DNA of 20,792 nucleotides from a virus. The position numbers and the translations under genes are program-made. The stretch lies in UHGV virus genome UHGV-1788846, one strand, 5' to 3'. Shown here in pieces: positions 12,057 to 20,792 of the stretch (position 1 is the stretch's first letter; every line of letters starts with the position of its first letter). The notes below the pieces were generated by a model that saw nothing but the letters and a program-made list of their open reading frames with translations, did no database searches and was not told the origin of the DNA.

Positions 12057-12713
12057 TTATTTAGCCCTTCCTAATATTCTGGCCGCCTGAGAACATATTG
12101 ATTCAAGGCGGTCATTACTTATATGATCATTTCTATACCAGTACATGGTTATTGTTCCAGCATAGATATTATCCAAATTGAAATATGGACAACTGTACAT
12201 GTAATTTATTTCGGGAGTAGGCTTTTTGGTTGGTAAAAAAGCAAATTTTGAGTTGGAATAATAATGACGTCCATTTAAATGAACTGTATATTCATCCATA
12301 GTTTTATCAACAGGATATCCTCCAAGTGATTTTTCACTTATTGTTGAAGGTAATTTTCCTTCGTATGCTATAATATCAACAAAATAGTTTAAGTTTTTAG
12401 GGCGGAAAGAATATACCGCACTAAAGTCTGCCTCAGATGATATATGAACTATCTGGAGTTGTTCCAGGGCGACAGATTCAAAGCGTGCATTTCTTTCCTT
12501 TTCAACAATTTCACGGTATGTTTCATACTTTGATTGCTTATAGTACTCAAAGAAACTATCTCCCCTATACCAAACAATCGCCATTATAAACAAAAGAATT
12601 ACGACAGCTACCCGGGAAGCAAGAACCTTCCCGGTAGCGTTATCTTTGAACAAGCGATCTAGAACACCAAATAGAATATCAGAGGGCGAAAATGATATTC
12701 TAGGTGCTGCCAT
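12057..12713 (-). CDS. t: Holin T, 218 aa
   Basis: 218 aa with an N-terminal transmembrane segment (VAVVILLFIMAIVWY) and a large periplasmic domain; strong RBS AAAAGGAGGG; position between asiA and gene 38. Confidence 0.9.
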   Translation of the reverse strand: MAAPRISFSPSDILFGVLDRLFKDNATGKVLASRVAVVILLFIMAIVWYRGDSFFEYYKQSKYETYREIVEKERNARFESVALEQLQIVHISSEADFSAVYSFRPKNLNYFVDIIAYEGKLPSTISEKSLGGYPVDKTMDEYTVHLNGRHYYSNSKFAFLPTKKPTPEINYMYSCPYFNLDNIYAGTITMYWYRNDHISNDRLESICSQAARILGRAK

Positions 12714-12744: not shown

Positions 12745-13551
12745 TTATACTCTTGCACCATATATTGTACCAACTTTAGTCCAAGTTGGAGCATTACCAG
12801 TAACAGCTTTACCCGCAGCACCAGCACCACTGGCATTATAGTTTGATGTACGAACGGCAGCACCACCAGCCGCACCAACGTTACCACCAGCACCACTCAT
12901 GTTATTACCATCAACGGTTACTTTACCACCTGCGGCGGTTAACGATGCATTACCACCATTACCACGACCACCTCGACCACCAGTACCGAACGGACGGCCA
13001 CCACCGCCGCCAGCGACGCCAGCTAATGTGAAGTTATAGTCTATGGACCAACCACCACCGCCGCCACCGCCGCCAGCAATTGCACCATTATTCGTAATAC
13101 GTAAGCGTGTACCAATACCATTATTAATCGCTGTACCACCAGCAGTTGCTCGAACCAAAGCATCTCCAGAACCTCCACTAGATCCAGATCCATTACCTCC
13201 TCGGCCATAAACAGTAACGCCAGAGTTAATAATCAATGTCACGTATTCATTAGTTAATGAACTAGGAAAATCTAAGCATGGAATAGTTGAAGAACTAGAA
13301 ACAATATCTCCTGTTATTGTTACAACAGCAGGAGCTGTTCCAATTGATTTAAGCCAATTAATTAAAGTATCTTTATTATATGAATGATTTGAGCCAATTG
13401 AATAAGCTTTTTCAACTGACTTTCCTGCCATTGAGCTCATCCAGCCGGGAACTGAAACACGAACAGCTTTCATCGCAGCATCCATCCAACGTTGTCCAGT
13501 TTCATTCACGGCAGATTCACCAATCCAGCCAGGAACACCTACAATTGCCAT
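12745..13551 (-). CDS. 38: T2-type gp38 long-tail-fibre tip adhesin, 268 aa, with glycine-rich motifs and variable segments
   Basis: N-terminal conserved domain followed by Gly-rich blocks (GRGGNGSGSSGGSG, GGGGGGGG, GGGGGRPFGTGGRGGRGNGG, SGAGGNVGAAGG) separated by short variable stretches. Located directly downstream of gene 37. The T4-type gp38 is a 183-aa chaperone, so this is the T2/K3/Ox2 form. Confidence 0.85.
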   Translation of the reverse strand: MAIVGVPGWIGESAVNETGQRWMDAAMKAVRVSVPGWMSSMAGKSVEKAYSIGSNHSYNKDTLINWLKSIGTAPAVVTITGDIVSSSSTIPCLDFPSSLTNEYVTLIINSGVTVYGRGGNGSGSSGGSGDALVRATAGGTAINNGIGTRLRITNNGAIAGGGGGGGGWSIDYNFTLAGVAGGGGGRPFGTGGRGGRGNGGNASLTAAGGKVTVDGNNMSGAGGNVGAAGGAAVRTSNYNASGAGAAGKAVTGNAPTWTKVGTIYGARV

Positions 13552-13562
13552 TAAAAATCCTT

Positions 13563-13580
13563 AGAGGGCCGAAGCCCTCT
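13563..13580 (-). other. Intercistronic hairpin between 37 and 38: AGAGGGC-UUCG-GCCCUCU on the transcribed strand
   Basis: Perfect 7-bp stem; the loop reads UUCG only on the - strand; followed by AAGGA and the gene 38 ATG. Confidence 0.6.
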
Positions 13581-13581
13581 T

Positions 13582-16500
13582 TTACATAAGTTTAGATTCA
13601 AGTTCTTTTACACGAGCAGAAAGTGTTTTCACAGCTTCAACCAGAAGAGCAATCTGGGCTTGAGAAGAAACAGTGAGTATTTTATTACCCTTGCTATCTT
13701 CTGTTTCATGGACAGCTTCTGGTAAAACGTCTTGCAACGTTTGAGCTATAATACCCGCTTCGGTTTGAACAGGTTCACCGCCTATATATTCAGCTTTGTC
13801 ATAGATTAAACCATCAAGTTGCTCAACCCTTTCGAGCGCATTTTTAATAGGTTTAAAATTAGATTTCAAGCGAACATCAGAACGAATATAAACGTTAGGA
13901 GCATTGACATTTTTCTCGGAATAAACTTCGCTTGAGGTGAATCTAACAACTTTAACGTTGTTCGCCCACGCTTCTAAAAGCCCATCGCCTACTTGTCTAA
14001 AACCAGTATCGCTATCACCTATTGCAATTGAGTTACCACCCCATCCATTTGTTGTATTAACACCAAAGGCACTTGTTTGTGGTAGCAGTACTTTACCAGG
14101 GCAATCTAAAGTACCGTCCATTGTAAAGCGCCATCTTGCTTGCTGGCCATTAGCATTATCTCCGCGAATACGAATAATACCATCGCGCCAACCAGCTGTA
14201 GTGCCGGAACCGACCCATCCGAACTCAAAGGTTTGACGATAACCCGCTGAACCATAGTTACTCCATGCACCGACAATAGGATAATAACTACCTGAATTAG
14301 ATAAATCACCATGATCTGCCATAAAGGTGATTTTAGATTTCATGGCATCTGAGGTATCTCCCCATCCAGATGGCGCGCGGGCGTATGAAACTAGTCTTGA
14401 GCTAATATTACCTAAATTAGTATTACCGCCAGTAACGTTTAATCCACCACCAGTAATATTCAACCCATGGTTCATACCAACGCGGCCATCAGTCATATTA
14501 ATAGAGAAAGGTCTTAAGCCATTCCAATCACCATTAGCTGCATCGGGTTTTTCTTCCGTATTTTTATCTGTAGCTAAAATATAAAAACTTCCGCCATCAT
14601 TTCTAATTAAAGCTGCGTTAGAACCGATATTATTACCGTTAGATTTAATACGCATGCCTTTTTGATTATCAGTAACGTATTCACCGCGAGTAACAATGTT
14701 AGATTCTCCAGCTGCGAAAGTTCCGCCAATATTATTTAACAGACGAACTGTTTTACCTACAACATGTCCCTCAGGCAATGCATCAACAACTGGCTGAATG
14801 CCTCCGTTAAGACCGACTACGGTTACCGAAGAGTTTTCACTACAGGAATATTCAACCACTAATGCATTTGTATAACCGGCACAGAACACGTATACATCAT
14901 AAGTATCGCCAGATGTATTCATAGTAGCTATCTGATTAAAACTCAGGTCTGACCTATTCCACAGTACAGCGTTTATGCCTTTAGGATTATTATTACCCGT
15001 GCGAAGAACTATTTCTGCAACAGAAGCTTGGCTATAGCTTTTAAAATTAAAACCAGCGCCGCCGGAAATCTTAAAAGTCACTGTACCAGTACCCTGAGGA
15101 ATTGTTACCGTAGCAAATTTATACCATCCGTCAACAGAACTACCAGCCCAACCGCCCACGCTGGTTTTACGATTTAACGTTGTATTTAAGTTAGCAAAAT
15201 TACCAGTACCACCTGTGATGTTACCATCTGTACCAATTCGAATATCATTAATTTTAAGAGGCTTAGTAATATCGACAGTATCAGAGTTTAATGCAATACC
15301 GTGAGAGTAGGTGTAATTATGCATACGAACGACGTTTCCGCCATCGCCAATACCTAAATACCATTTTGTAACATCAGCCTTACGTCCTTGAATAAAGTTA
15401 GATGCAGCTTGAGATGAAGCATTTACCACAATAGCGTCAGAATCCATATTAACTCGAAGTCTAACATCGGTTTGAACGAATTTTGATACGTTATCAATAG
15501 TAAGCAAATTTTTTCCGGCTTGTGTATGATTGCCCATCATAACACTACCATTTGCGAGATTGATGGTAAATGGGCGTAAATTACTTATACCGCCCGATTC
15601 TCCAGCATTTTGTAAAGTTGGAATAATATAAAAGTTAGTTTCCGAACGGCGGAAAATAGCACCGTATTCAGCATTCCAAATTCTTAATGCATCTGCTGTT
15701 CCACCAAATTTAGCTTGTCCATTTACAGACAATCCATTATTTGCAACTAAACTTGACTCAGTAACAATAGAACCTGATGATGTAATACCCCCACCGGTTA
15801 ATAATGCTCCAGCAATTCTAAATTGAATTACTCCAGTTGTTGAACCTGATGCAGGAGCTACACGCTGCGCATAAAAATAATAACCTTGTCCGTCAGCTAC
15901 TTCAAAAACCGTTTCACGATTACGATCGCCAGATGCGTTAAATGAATTACCCCACGCTTTAATAGATACATAACTTTTATTCTGACCTGCGCGAGTACCA
16001 CCAGCCCACAGTATAGTTTTAGTGCCATCTGCTGATGTAGGAGCGTCAAGTTGAATACCGTCAGGTCTAGCACCAGTAAGAACTAATCCGTTATCAAATT
16101 TAATTCTTTGTATTGAAGATACTGTTCCATTAGCATAAAACTGTACGTTATTAGAGCCAGTTACCAATTTCAAAATACCAGGGTTAATTTCCATACCTTC
16201 CTGTGTATTAATGTTGGTTTGGCCTTTACCGCGGAAATAATGGGAAAATTTACCGCCAGAATTATATCCAATGTGGGTTTGACCATCGCCTGCGTTATTC
16301 ACATCTGCCTGAGTTTGAACAGACAAGAGAGCAGCGTTCGTTCCAGGCATTGTCCAGGTTCCGCCTTGATCTTCTGAACGTCCAAATAATGCTTTACGAG
16401 TACTACGGAAACTATCAGGAGTAATAGAAGCAACAGAATTCCAATTACCTACTAAATCATAAACACCTTGCTTAATATATTTTAAACCGGTTGCAGCATC

Positions 16501-17454
16501 ACCCAAAGCAATATATCTTTCTCCCATTGGAGTAGGAGAACCGTAGTTGTTAGTATTTTCATCAGTGGTAATTGTGCCAATAGCAAGTGAACGACGTAAT
16601 ACCATTGCGCCATCATTACGAAGACCCATTAATTTAGTAGTAAGTGTATTTCCGGTCCACCAAGAAATTTCATCATTCTTACCAGTTTGAGCTGAAGCGA
16701 TTTCATGGTAAATAGTTCCGCCTGATTTAGCTCTAACTTTACGAAGATAGTTTATACCATTTTCTTCACCTGTTCCAGGATAAACATATTGAACTAATGA
16801 CTGTGAATCATATTGTCCAAATGCTTTTGTATCTAAAATAATATTTTTAGTATTAATCTGAGGCGAAGTAATATTTCCGAGAGCTGCAATATTTCCAGAT
16901 GTAGTTATACTACCTCCTGATACTGCTAAACCTCCACCGTCAACAACAAATCCGCCGTCACGTCGAAACGTCCAATATTTCGAATCGCCAGATTCATTGA
17001 TATAATGAATCTTCAACGAACCTTCAGAAACTAAAGTACCTAATGAAAAAGTTCCATCTTTAAAGCGCTGTTTAATTATAGGATTATATTCAGATGTGGA
17101 AGTAGCTGAGCTTAAATCTACAAAAATTGGAGCTTTCGCAGTATGTTGACCGGACCAAGCCCCACTTCCAGTAGTACGATAATTAAACTCAATATATCCA
17201 CCGCTTGCTACAATTTGCGGACCAATTAAATTAAATTTTCCAGTCTGTGTATAATCGCCAGTTTGAGTGATATTTCCACTAATATTACCGCCAGCGGTAA
17301 TGCTTAAATCAATAATATTTCCCGAGTCATCTTTAGTAAAAAGAGTACGGTCTTTTAAGTTTATAGCCAATTCACCTTCGGCTAATACTGAAGCAGCAGG
17401 ACGTTGACCTGCAGTTTTGCTTCTTTTAAATTGTATTTGTTTTAAAGTAGCCAT
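13582..17454 (-). CDS. 37: Long tail fibre distal subunit gp37, 1290 aa, with a C-terminal intramolecular-chaperone-type domain
   Basis: N-terminus MATLKQIQFKRSKTAGQRPAASVLAEGELAINLKDRTLF is the conserved gp37 start; the long repetitive Gly/Thr/Ser/Asn-rich body is typical of fibre shafts; C-terminal …YIRSDVRLKSNF… motif. Confidence 0.9.
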   Translation of the reverse strand: MATLKQIQFKRSKTAGQRPAASVLAEGELAINLKDRTLFTKDDSGNIIDLSITAGGNISGNITQTGDYTQTGKFNLIGPQIVASGGYIEFNYRTTGSGAWSGQHTAKAPIFVDLSSATSTSEYNPIIKQRFKDGTFSLGTLVSEGSLKIHYINESGDSKYWTFRRDGGFVVDGGGLAVSGGSITTSGNIAALGNITSPQINTKNIILDTKAFGQYDSQSLVQYVYPGTGEENGINYLRKVRAKSGGTIYHEIASAQTGKNDEISWWTGNTLTTKLMGLRNDGAMVLRRSLAIGTITTDENTNNYGSPTPMGERYIALGDAATGLKYIKQGVYDLVGNWNSVASITPDSFRSTRKALFGRSEDQGGTWTMPGTNAALLSVQTQADVNNAGDGQTHIGYNSGGKFSHYFRGKGQTNINTQEGMEINPGILKLVTGSNNVQFYANGTVSSIQRIKFDNGLVLTGARPDGIQLDAPTSADGTKTILWAGGTRAGQNKSYVSIKAWGNSFNASGDRNRETVFEVADGQGYYFYAQRVAPASGSTTGVIQFRIAGALLTGGGITSSGSIVTESSLVANNGLSVNGQAKFGGTADALRIWNAEYGAIFRRSETNFYIIPTLQNAGESGGISNLRPFTINLANGSVMMGNHTQAGKNLLTIDNVSKFVQTDVRLRVNMDSDAIVVNASSQAASNFIQGRKADVTKWYLGIGDGGNVVRMHNYTYSHGIALNSDTVDITKPLKINDIRIGTDGNITGGTGNFANLNTTLNRKTSVGGWAGSSVDGWYKFATVTIPQGTGTVTFKISGGAGFNFKSYSQASVAEIVLRTGNNNPKGINAVLWNRSDLSFNQIATMNTSGDTYDVYVFCAGYTNALVVEYSCSENSSVTVVGLNGGIQPVVDALPEGHVVGKTVRLLNNIGGTFAAGESNIVTRGEYVTDNQKGMRIKSNGNNIGSNAALIRNDGGSFYILATDKNTEEKPDAANGDWNGLRPFSINMTDGRVGMNHGLNITGGGLNVTGGNTNLGNISSRLVSYARAPSGWGDTSDAMKSKITFMADHGDLSNSGSYYPIVGAWSNYGSAGYRQTFEFGWVGSGTTAGWRDGIIRIRGDNANGQQARWRFTMDGTLDCPGKVLLPQTSAFGVNTTNGWGGNSIAIGDSDTGFRQVGDGLLEAWANNVKVVRFTSSEVYSEKNVNAPNVYIRSDVRLKSNFKPIKNALERVEQLDGLIYDKAEYIGGEPVQTEAGIIAQTLQDVLPEAVHETEDSKGNKILTVSSQAQIALLVEAVKTLSARVKELESKLM

Positions 17455-18190: not shown

Positions 18191-19306
18191 TTAAACTTCT
18201 CTAAATTCTTGTCCAAACACTTTACCAGCTTTAGACGATGCTTGCGTAGGAAGTACCATTATATCCGGAGGTGAAGCAGATTCACAGATATAATTAACAC
18301 GAATACCATTGACGCCAAATTCAGCAGGTTTTGAAATACCGCCGTTTCTTGATACTTCAGAAAAGCTTAAATTTCTCATGCCACCTTGTCCAGCTTGTGC
18401 AGTTCTTTGTGCATATATCGTAAATCCTACTGCGTTTTCTGGAACAACTACATAATCTTCCTTTAATTCCCATGACCCAGCTTGCCCAGTAAACTCAGCT
18501 TGTGTTGAAGAAATATATCCATTCGATGCATTATAAAAACGGATAGATATATTTGTAGTTCCAAGCGCGAGTAAATCGGCATCAGCATATAACTGAGCTT
18601 TAAGATAAAGAACATCGCCAGGGATTAAATTATAATCAGAGAGTTTACTTATAGCAGCTGAAGTTGGCAAACGCGCAATTTCGTTATTAGTTCCACCAAC
18701 CGCCGACATAAATTGCTCAACGCTTTCGTACGTTCTTTTTGGAAACCCGGTAGCTCCGATGTCTTCTAAACTGTCAAACACCACATCTAAAATAGTTTGA
18801 TAGTCATCTGTGCTTTTTCTGTTGCTCAGTTTAACATGCTCTAATGCAATAGCTCTTTTAGAAGAAGTGTAAAAAGCAGCATATGATACGTCAAATCTTG
18901 CCAGCAAAGAATCAGATGGAAAAGCAGACGTTCCTGCGGTTCTCAACCAAGATACTACTTCAGGAGGAAAATTAACCTTTCCGCTAGTTAATATAGCAAC
19001 AAGTCTGTTATTCGTCAAAGAATTCATGAAACTAACAAAAGCAGCCGATGTAGTATCATTTGAAGTCGAAAAAGCATATGACTTACTATCAACTAATGCT
19101 CCGGTGGAAGGGTCAAAAACTCTTAAATGAAGTCCTGCGCTAAATGTTTGACTTCCAACAGGATTATCCTGAAATTTAACGTATGGTCCTGCTGTAGAAA
19201 GCGGGCAAGAACCCGCTATACTTATTTTATATCTTACTGAATTACTTTCCGATAAAAATGGCGTTTGGACATATCCTTGTCCAAACTCTGCCATAAATTT
19301 TTCCAT
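18191..19306 (-). CDS. 35: Long tail fibre hinge connector gp35, 371 aa
   Basis: Size close to T4 gp35 (372 aa as I recall); located between 34 and 36; ATG with an upstream AGAGG-type RBS. Confidence 0.85.
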   Translation of the reverse strand: MEKFMAEFGQGYVQTPFLSESNSVRYKISIAGSCPLSTAGPYVKFQDNPVGSQTFSAGLHLRVFDPSTGALVDSKSYAFSTSNDTTSAAFVSFMNSLTNNRLVAILTSGKVNFPPEVVSWLRTAGTSAFPSDSLLARFDVSYAAFYTSSKRAIALEHVKLSNRKSTDDYQTILDVVFDSLEDIGATGFPKRTYESVEQFMSAVGGTNNEIARLPTSAAISKLSDYNLIPGDVLYLKAQLYADADLLALGTTNISIRFYNASNGYISSTQAEFTGQAGSWELKEDYVVVPENAVGFTIYAQRTAQAGQGGMRNLSFSEVSRNGGISKPAEFGVNGIRVNYICESASPPDIMVLPTQASSKAGKVFGQEFREV

Positions 19307-19314
19307 AATACCTC

Positions 19315-20792
19315 TTATTCAATCCATTCAAATTTAACAGATTTATTCACTGGGTCAGGAATAATGCGAACATTACCAATTCGTAAGAAATCACGAATAG
19401 TAAGATTCCCCATTGTAGCATTATCAGATGGTAAAGCACCAATATCAGATGGTTGTGGAGGGTTACCTCCATCAAATACCTGAACAAAACTTGACCAAGA
19501 GTTTTTGGTTTTCTGCCATGTACGTGTCCAGCGAGTGGTACGTGCTTCTGGAGTAGTTGGATAAGTAATCCAATCTTGGTAAAGCGAATCAAGTGTGTTA
19601 CCAAACTGAGTCAATGTACCAGGAGATTTAACTTCTTCGCCACGTTCTAAGTATGGAAGTCCAGTCACTTCATTAGTTTTTTCAACCATTTTAAAATAAC
19701 CTGGGAACTGGTTATAAGTGGCTGAATCGTTAATATCGATTGACCAGAATCCTACAGTATCAGATGTTGGTGCACGGGTATATAAATCAGATGTTTTAGT
19801 ACCCTGAGAACGAATTCTCGAGTTAACAGTTAAACCACCTGAATTTATAGTAGCACCTTTGGCAATGATTAAGCTTTCACCAATCGTTACTTGACCGGAC
19901 TGATTGTTAATAGCTAAAGGACGTAATCCATTAAATCCGCCAGTCTGATCACCCGATGCAGTAAGCATGAAATAGGTGTTAGCAGCATCGTTGCGAATAA
20001 AGAATCCATAATCACCGTTTATTGCTCTGAAAGCATTTGCAGACTTGCTGATGAATTCACCATTAGCAGTAACTGAACTACCAAATGTCGCAACGCCGCC
20101 CGCGTTCAAAGAACCCGAAGCATTAACGTTTATCGGCATCACAGTACCATTGATACTAAACGTTATATTCCCAGCTTTATTACGTTGAGAATAAAAGTGA
20201 TTAGACGTTTCATCGCCAACCTCAAATACAGTAGAACGTGTTGTATCTGAACCGCCACCAAACTGATTTCCCCAAACTCTGATAGTCATCGTCTGTGCTG
20301 GGTTAGTTCCAGTCTGAGGTCCTTTCTCAAAAATCAGACGAGTTGCCGTTCCAGTATTAGAAATAGTTAATGTGCTGTTTGCCGAAACTGATCCGCCAAA
20401 CGTAGCAGTACTAGATGATACAAGAGGGGCACTCAGATTCGTTTGCTGGGTTAAGGTTAGTGAACCATTAACCGTCTGTGCAATATCCCTACGAATGAAC
20501 TGGGATGAATCTAGACCATCCAATAAATTTGTATCAGCAGCTTTTGCTTTTAATGGCAAATAATTTGCTAATACACGGTTTAATTCATATGGTGATACTG
20601 CATAGCTATTTTTCTCATACAGTTCTAAATCTTGGGTAGAACCGACTGTATCATTACCAACGAATGTAATTGAACCAGATGAAGTTTTAACAAAACCTCT
20701 TATTGCAGTAGTAGCTGCCCAAGTAGGTTCACTCTGCACAATCCATTTTAAATTTTTTGGAGATACAGCAGTATTTGCTGACGTTCCAGCTA
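19315..20792 (-). CDS. 34: Long tail fibre proximal subunit gp34, C-terminal portion; 5'-truncated by the window edge
   Basis: The frame stays open to the window end (the track start at 20739 is a GTG inside an open frame); repetitive fibre-like composition; stops 8 nt before gene 35. Confidence 0.8.
   Translation of the reverse strand, partial: AGTSANTAVSPKNLKWIVQSEPTWAATTAIRGFVKTSSGSITFVGNDTVGSTQDLELYEKNSYAVSPYELNRVLANYLPLKAKAADTNLLDGLDSSQFIRRDIAQTVNGSLTLTQQTNLSAPLVSSSTATFGGSVSANSTLTISNTGTATRLIFEKGPQTGTNPAQTMTIRVWGNQFGGGSDTTRSTVFEVGDETSNHFYSQRNKAGNITFSINGTVMPINVNASGSLNAGGVATFGSSVTANGEFISKSANAFRAINGDYGFFIRNDAANTYFMLTASGDQTGGFNGLRPLAINNQSGQVTIGESLIIAKGATINSGGLTVNSRIRSQGTKTSDLYTRAPTSDTVGFWSIDINDSATYNQFPGYFKMVEKTNEVTGLPYLERGEEVKSPGTLTQFGNTLDSLYQDWITYPTTPEARTTRWTRTWQKTKNSWSSFVQVFDGGNPPQPSDIGALPSDNATMGNLTIRDFLRIGNVRIIPDPVNKSVKFEWIE

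Follow-up and report, generated by a model that had tools for sequence, protein, structure and literature searches.

The C terminus of gp37 in a Tequatrovirus genome segment is a Peptidase_S74 intramolecular chaperone with a predicted T2-type autocleavage site

We analyzed a 20,792-nucleotide stretch of the virus genome UHGV-1788846 (the whole stretch is called the window below) and found that residues 1192 to 1290 of its distal long tail fiber protein, gp37, constitute, to judge from profile and alignment evidence, a standard Peptidase_S74 intramolecular chaperone. The domain retains the catalytic residues of the family, occupies the extreme C terminus of the protein, and is encoded next to a gp38 of the adhesin type. 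By homology, it is highly probable that this is a self-cleaving chaperone of the T2 type, whose release would leave a mature gp37 of 1,191 residues ending in NVYIR. Earlier papers on T2, S16, and closely related Tequatroviruses already describe the domain, the motif, and the assembly model; thus, the finding, although correct, is not new, and the gp37 of the window is an ordinary member of the family in the standard T2/S16-type gp37-gp38 arrangement.

The gp37 reading frame and its C-terminal site

The features of gene 37 that bear on the analysis are the following (all on the minus strand).

13582..17454, minus strand: gene 37, precursor of the distal subunit of the long tail fiber, 1290 aa and a stop codon (from the ORF list, translation, and Pfam)
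13585..13881, minus strand: intramolecular chaperone domain, residues 1192-1290 (99 aa)
13588..13665, minus strand: predicted long C-terminal helix, residues 1264-1289 (AlphaFold2 model)
13708-13881, minus strand: Pfam Peptidase_S74 core, residues 1192-1249
13864..13866, minus strand: codon of Lys1197 (Ser +5), predicted general base of a Ser-Lys dyad
13879..13881, minus strand: codon TCT of Ser1192, predicted to act as nucleophile and to begin the released chaperone
13882..13896, minus strand: N-V-Y-I-R codons, residues 1187-1191, predicted to be the tip at the end of mature gp37 and the strand on which gp38 docks

We identified this open reading frame as the T-even distal long tail fiber protein gp37 on the basis of its N terminus and its Pfam content, which comprises Gp34_trimer (residues 506-631), gp37_trimer (residues 675-748), and Peptidase_S74. 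The window itself is a Tequatrovirus segment with a T2-type long tail fiber; several phages, T2 among them, align to 91-99% of its length with an identity of ~94%. Its positions 12745-14500 align with gene 37/38 of phage Lutter at 93% DNA identity, and the feature there carries the annotation of long tail fiber distal subunit. Toward the end of gp37, the stretch YIRSDVRLKSNFKPIKNALERVEQLDGL begins at residue 1189, and Ser1192 opens the motif S-D-V-R-L-K. The preliminary description of this DNA had proposed a C-terminal domain of ~100 residues in the 1290-aa protein and had placed the codon of a critical Ser at 13879-13881 on the minus strand; the actual length, counted from the Ser, is 99 residues, and the codon position, which is that of residue 1192, is exact.

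Profile and structure comparisons

The preliminary description had likened the end of gp37 to the self-cleaving chaperone domains of other phage proteins, and a search with the Peptidase_S74 profile (PF13884, "chaperone of endosialidase") bore this out, with scores far above the gathering cut-off of 22: the match spans the entire profile (positions 1-58 of 58) at gp37 residues 1192-1249, with 51.0 bits (E = 1.8e-13) when the whole protein is the query and 55.8 bits when only its last 129 aa are used, and both the Ser and the Lys five residues downstream are conserved. In comparisons with solved structures, the last 199 residues of gp37 matched the S16 gp37 construct (6f45_A; E = 8.4e-10) and the ICA domain of MyRF (7dc3_A).

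We then aligned the tail of gp37 with those of ten phage homologues (from T2, a T5-like phage, Margaery, Matisse, JSE, Bp7, Sa45lw, SSU5, a Synechococcus phage, and Aeromonas phage Ah1). The residues invariant in all 11 sequences are the Ser, the Asp, the Lys at +5, an Ala, a Gly, an A-Q pair, and a P-E pair. A profile built from this alignment recovered, among solved structures, the S16 gp37 construct (6f45_A; E = 9.4e-28), the MyRF ICA domain (7dc3_A; E = 1.8e-11), a tail fiber (8jov; E = 7.2e-11), and the released chaperone of the GA-1 neck appendage (3gud_A; E = 2.8e-5). Ser1192 aligns with the Ser of S16 gp37, and the Ser and Lys(+5) together align with those of the solved family members; the chain of 3gud_A has as its very first residue the Ser aligned to Ser1192 (SDERHK). 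We also attempted to place the upstream catalytic Arg and Asp by alignment to T5, and the regions preceding the Ser proved unalignable between fiber types.

A helical C-terminal stretch, likewise proposed in the preliminary description, is present in an AlphaFold2 monomer model, which has a helix at model residues 103-128 (gp37 1264-1289) in a block with a pLDDT of 76-88. This is a mediocre model built on an alignment of only eight rows, since a word-indexed homologue search with the last 199 aa recovered only nine proteins, and, being a monomer, it is uninformative on a coiled coil. The fold typical of the family has a mixed alpha-beta portion ahead of a long helix, and in solved homologues the segment matching the predicted helix is the trimeric coiled coil of the chaperone.

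Conservation across the family

A HMMER scan of 1.84 billion cluster representatives (E <= 0.001) recovered 20,794 proteins carrying a Peptidase_S74 domain. Among the best 150 of these representatives, both the Ser and the Lys(+5) are retained in 148 and the strict SDx[RK]xK motif is found in 138. In 143 of the same 150, no more than 20 residues separate the end of the domain from the C terminus, and in gp37 the chaperone domain extends to the final residue of the protein. The residues immediately before the Ser are also recurrent: 43 of the 138 motif-bearing proteins have [DN]VYIR directly upstream of it, and T2, Lutter, Margaery, JSE, Bp7, and SSU5 each have either DVYIR or NVYIR.

The remaining 2 of the best 150 representatives have replaced the catalytic Ser and kept the rest of the motif, one with Cys (P0086; VRCDARLK) and the other with Pro (P0113; IRPDRRVK); the former could be a Cys-nucleophile variant and the latter a non-cleaving one. 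A hit of the word-indexed search, P0005, a 176-aa ENA protein from an 885-bp contig, is 100% identical to the gp37 tail query over 24% of the latter, and the Pfam domain precomputed for it, PF01594, does not belong to phage fibers; the contig looks chimeric or misassembled.

The gp38 adhesin and the gene neighborhood

Two genes follow gene 37 on the same strand.

12745..13551, minus strand: gene 38, T2/S16-type tail fiber adhesin, 268 aa (Pfam and 6f45_D match)
12057-12713, minus strand: T holin, gene t (Pfam)

The product of gene 38 combines an N-terminal attachment domain (Gp38_N, PF21721; E = 7.5e-18) with a polyglycine-rich receptor-binding domain (GP38, PF05268; E = 2.2e-66), and it matches the solved structures of the S16 adhesin (6f45_D; E = 3.4e-42) and PP01 gp38 (9v85; E = 2.7e-40). 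Hence, the T2-type gp38 adhesin that had been postulated next door is indeed there. Three of its residues, Trp9, Trp22, and Trp37, are aligned to Trp residues of S16 gp38; such Trp residues of the attachment domain have been described as plugging into the gp37 tip (PMC7917993).

Pfam assignments of the neighboring ORFs give the order 35-36-37-38-t on one strand, which is common to Lutter, T2, and T4. In five of the sampled phages (T2, Bp7, Sa45lw, Matisse, and SSU5), a Gp38_N protein follows the chaperone-bearing fiber. The fiber of JSE (L006:1871-2110) has the chaperone and a DVYIR tip, and its next ORF, of 79 aa, has no match to Gp38_N or GP38; likewise, the fiber of Aeromonas phage Ah1 (L011:1894-2277) has the chaperone and is followed by a 127-aa ORF with no match to either family.

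Predicted cleavage and assembly

We infer the cleavage of gp37, the exact bond, and the order of assembly by homology to experimentally studied or modeled systems. In the S16 model, the last 113 residues of gp37 are removed by autocleavage at DLNVS^SDRRIKK, after which gp38 docks (PMC7917993), and for close relatives, the Yersinia Tequatroviruses, the cut DVYIR^SDGRLKI was predicted by alignment to the S16 site (PMC7917993). Exposure of the gp38 docking surface by chaperone autocleavage is the model for S16 and close Tequatrovirus relatives (PMC7917993; PMC3157838), and a passage of the latter paper, citing Drexler, Riede, and Henning 1986, describes C-terminal proteolytic cleavage of T2 and T6 gp37 followed by capping with gp38 (PMC3157838). 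The chemistry comes from T5 pb1, in which the Thr1263-Ser1264 bond is cut, cleavage is abolished by the substitution Ser1264Ala, Lys1269 serves to activate the Ser, and folding is sensed by an Arg of the neighboring chain; in both T5 and endoNF, this upstream sensor Arg and an Asp complete the active site only upon correct folding (PMC4690869). As for other literature, the CASP13 and CkP1 papers are silent on the chaperone, the PP01 gp38 paper gives T2-type gp38 as background only and does not mention cleavage, and the BASEL paper treats such chaperone domains for T5-like and other fibers and not for gp37.

On these precedents, three gp37 chains would join via their chaperone domains, nucleating trimerization, and the chaperone would template the folding of the trimeric, beta-structured distal fiber. 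Once the correct fold is reached, the hydroxyl of Ser1192, activated by Lys1197, would attack the Arg1191-Ser1192 bond of all three chains, whereupon the trimer of 99-residue chaperones would dissociate and leave mature gp37 1-1191 with NVYIR at its end. The preliminary description had the gp37 chain cut at the Ser. The site stands, as Ser1192, and the detail needs correction: since the scissile bond lies N-terminal to the conserved Ser in both S16 and T5, the predicted mature C terminus is Arg1191 and not the Ser, which would leave with the chaperone. Its further reading, that cleavage exposes a tip on which gp38 docks, gains support from the adhesin neighbor and from the same published model in S16 and its relatives, and it is likewise a prediction for the window. 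We consider it very unlikely that the released 99-residue chaperone trimer would serve a further function during infection, such as competing with gp38 for the NVYIR tip and so timing the capping, or acting with a conserved UUCG hairpin (see below) to help set a ratio of three gp37 to one gp38.

Comparison with known systems

T2 is among the closest known systems. Its gp37 tail is, like that of the window, 99 aa long and is 87.9% identical to it, with twelve substitutions; the two proteins have in common the junction NVYIR-SD(I/V)RLKSNFKPI, and the two phages the gene order 37-38-t, the intergenic hairpin, and an adhesin-type gp38. In contrast, the upstream shaft differs, T2 gp37 being 1341 aa long versus 1290 aa in the window, and the T2 DNA match spans only about 60% of the 12745-14500 query. 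Another is S16 gp37-gp38 (PDB code 6f45; Dunne et al. 2018): the window keeps its Ser-Asp-x-Arg-x-Lys motif and its gp38 Trp residues, whereas the residues before the Ser are DLNVS in S16 and NVYIR in the window, the chaperone is 113 aa in the former and 99 aa in the latter, and the distal shaft of S16 is only partly alignable to that of the window. At the level of the published motif, the Yersinia Tequatrovirus junction DVYIR^SDGRLKI nearly equals NVYIR^SDVRLKS of the window, although the phages and hosts are different.

Other members of the family (MEROPS S74/PF13884), namely, the K1F endosialidase endoNF, GA-1 gp12, and T5 pb1, have the same Ser-Lys spacing and C-terminal position as gp37 and a helical end like the one predicted for it. 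However, their mature parts are unrelated to it (a sialidase beta-propeller with a triple beta-helix, a neck appendage, and the bullet-shaped T5 tip, respectively), and their cleaved end carries no separate adhesin cap. In the eukaryotic MyRF (7dc3), cleavage frees a transcription factor from its membrane anchor, a context unrelated to that of gp37. Finally, T4 gp37 lacks Peptidase_S74, ending instead in Collar and Phage_fiber modules, and T4 gp38 has no Pfam family match. It is well known that T-even fibers are split between a T2 type, with a cleaved gp37 and a gp38 adhesin, and a T4 type, in which gp37 itself bears the tip and gp38 is a chaperone; the gp37-gp38 pattern in the Pfam results for T2 and T4 fits this division.

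Alternative explanations

It might be argued that the domain is a true Peptidase_S74 homologue that is never released, serving as a permanent C-terminal cap or trimerization module with gp38 attached elsewhere on the fiber. Cleavage of the gp37 of the window is, after all, predicted from homologues, and, with two Ser-less proteins (Pro or Cys) among the best 150 representatives, the family may include members that are altered or do not cleave. Nevertheless, every invariant family residue is present in gp37, including the Ser and the Lys(+5), and the NVYIR tip and the attachment domain of gp38 are as in the S16/fPS arrangement, in which docking requires removal of the chaperone. Given the intact catalytic residues and the 88% identity to the processed T2 tail, we regard a retained, non-cleaving domain as improbable compared with a self-cleaving one.

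The T4 mode of assembly, with gp38 as a folding chaperone absent from the virion, gp37 as the bearer of the receptor-binding tip, and the C-terminal similarity as incidental, would be compatible with the order 36-37-38-t, which is as in T4, and with some database records that still call the T2-type gp38 an "assembly catalyst." It is excluded by the matches of the gp38 of the window to PF05268, PF21721, and the S16 adhesin structure, neither of the two families being found in T4 gp38, and by the lack of Peptidase_S74 in T4 gp37; we thus hold it to be extremely improbable. The idea that S-D-x-R-x-K is a chance string in a generic helical tail has in its favor that a six-residue motif is weak evidence alone. 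It is refuted by profile E-values of 1e-13 to 1e-28 over about 100 residues, and the pattern SD.[RK].K occurs just once, at Ser1192, in the six-frame translation of the window (all 41,580 codons scanned). Its probability is next to nil, as S-D-V-R-L-K is part of an end-to-end Peptidase_S74 match. The self-cleaving T2-type chaperone is therefore the reading that we retain.

Significance for annotation

The finding affects annotation rather than biology, the mechanism not being new. It sets the predicted boundary of the mature fiber at gp37 1-1191 and identifies the surface predicted to bear the host-range determinant gp38, which is helpful for expressing the fiber, for retargeting the phage by adhesin swaps, and for reading virion proteomics. 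The domain family concerned is large, with more than 20,000 representative sequences.

Other features of the window

An intergenic element and two upstream ORFs also drew our attention. The first of these is the following.

13563..13580, minus strand: C(UUCG)G-type hairpin, located after the stop codon of gene 37 and ahead of the ribosome-binding site of gene 38

It consists of a 7-bp stem with a UUCG tetraloop (AGAGGGC-TTCG-GCCCTCT) and is terminator-like by a consensus scan. A hairpin of identical sequence occurs at the equivalent place in T2 and Lutter, and UUCG hairpins with other stem sequences occur there in Matisse, Bp7, Sa45lw, Margaery, and even T4; as the stems differ among phages, the hairpin is conserved as a structure and not as a sequence. 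The presence of C(UUCG)G hairpins in T4 intercistronic regions is a classic observation.

Upstream of gene 37, the ORF at 19315..20739 on the minus strand encodes 474 aa from a GTG start, and its frame is open to the edge of the window at 20792; it very probably encodes the C-terminal portion of a longer protein, gp34 by synteny, whose gene runs past the window. The hinge protein gp35 (18191-19306; 371 aa) matches the Pfam family ILEI (interleukin-like EMT inducer; PF15711) at residues 58-126 (18929-19135, minus strand) with 34.5 bits, the cut-off being 27 (E = 3.1e-8); one would not expect a family of this name in the hinge of a phage fiber.
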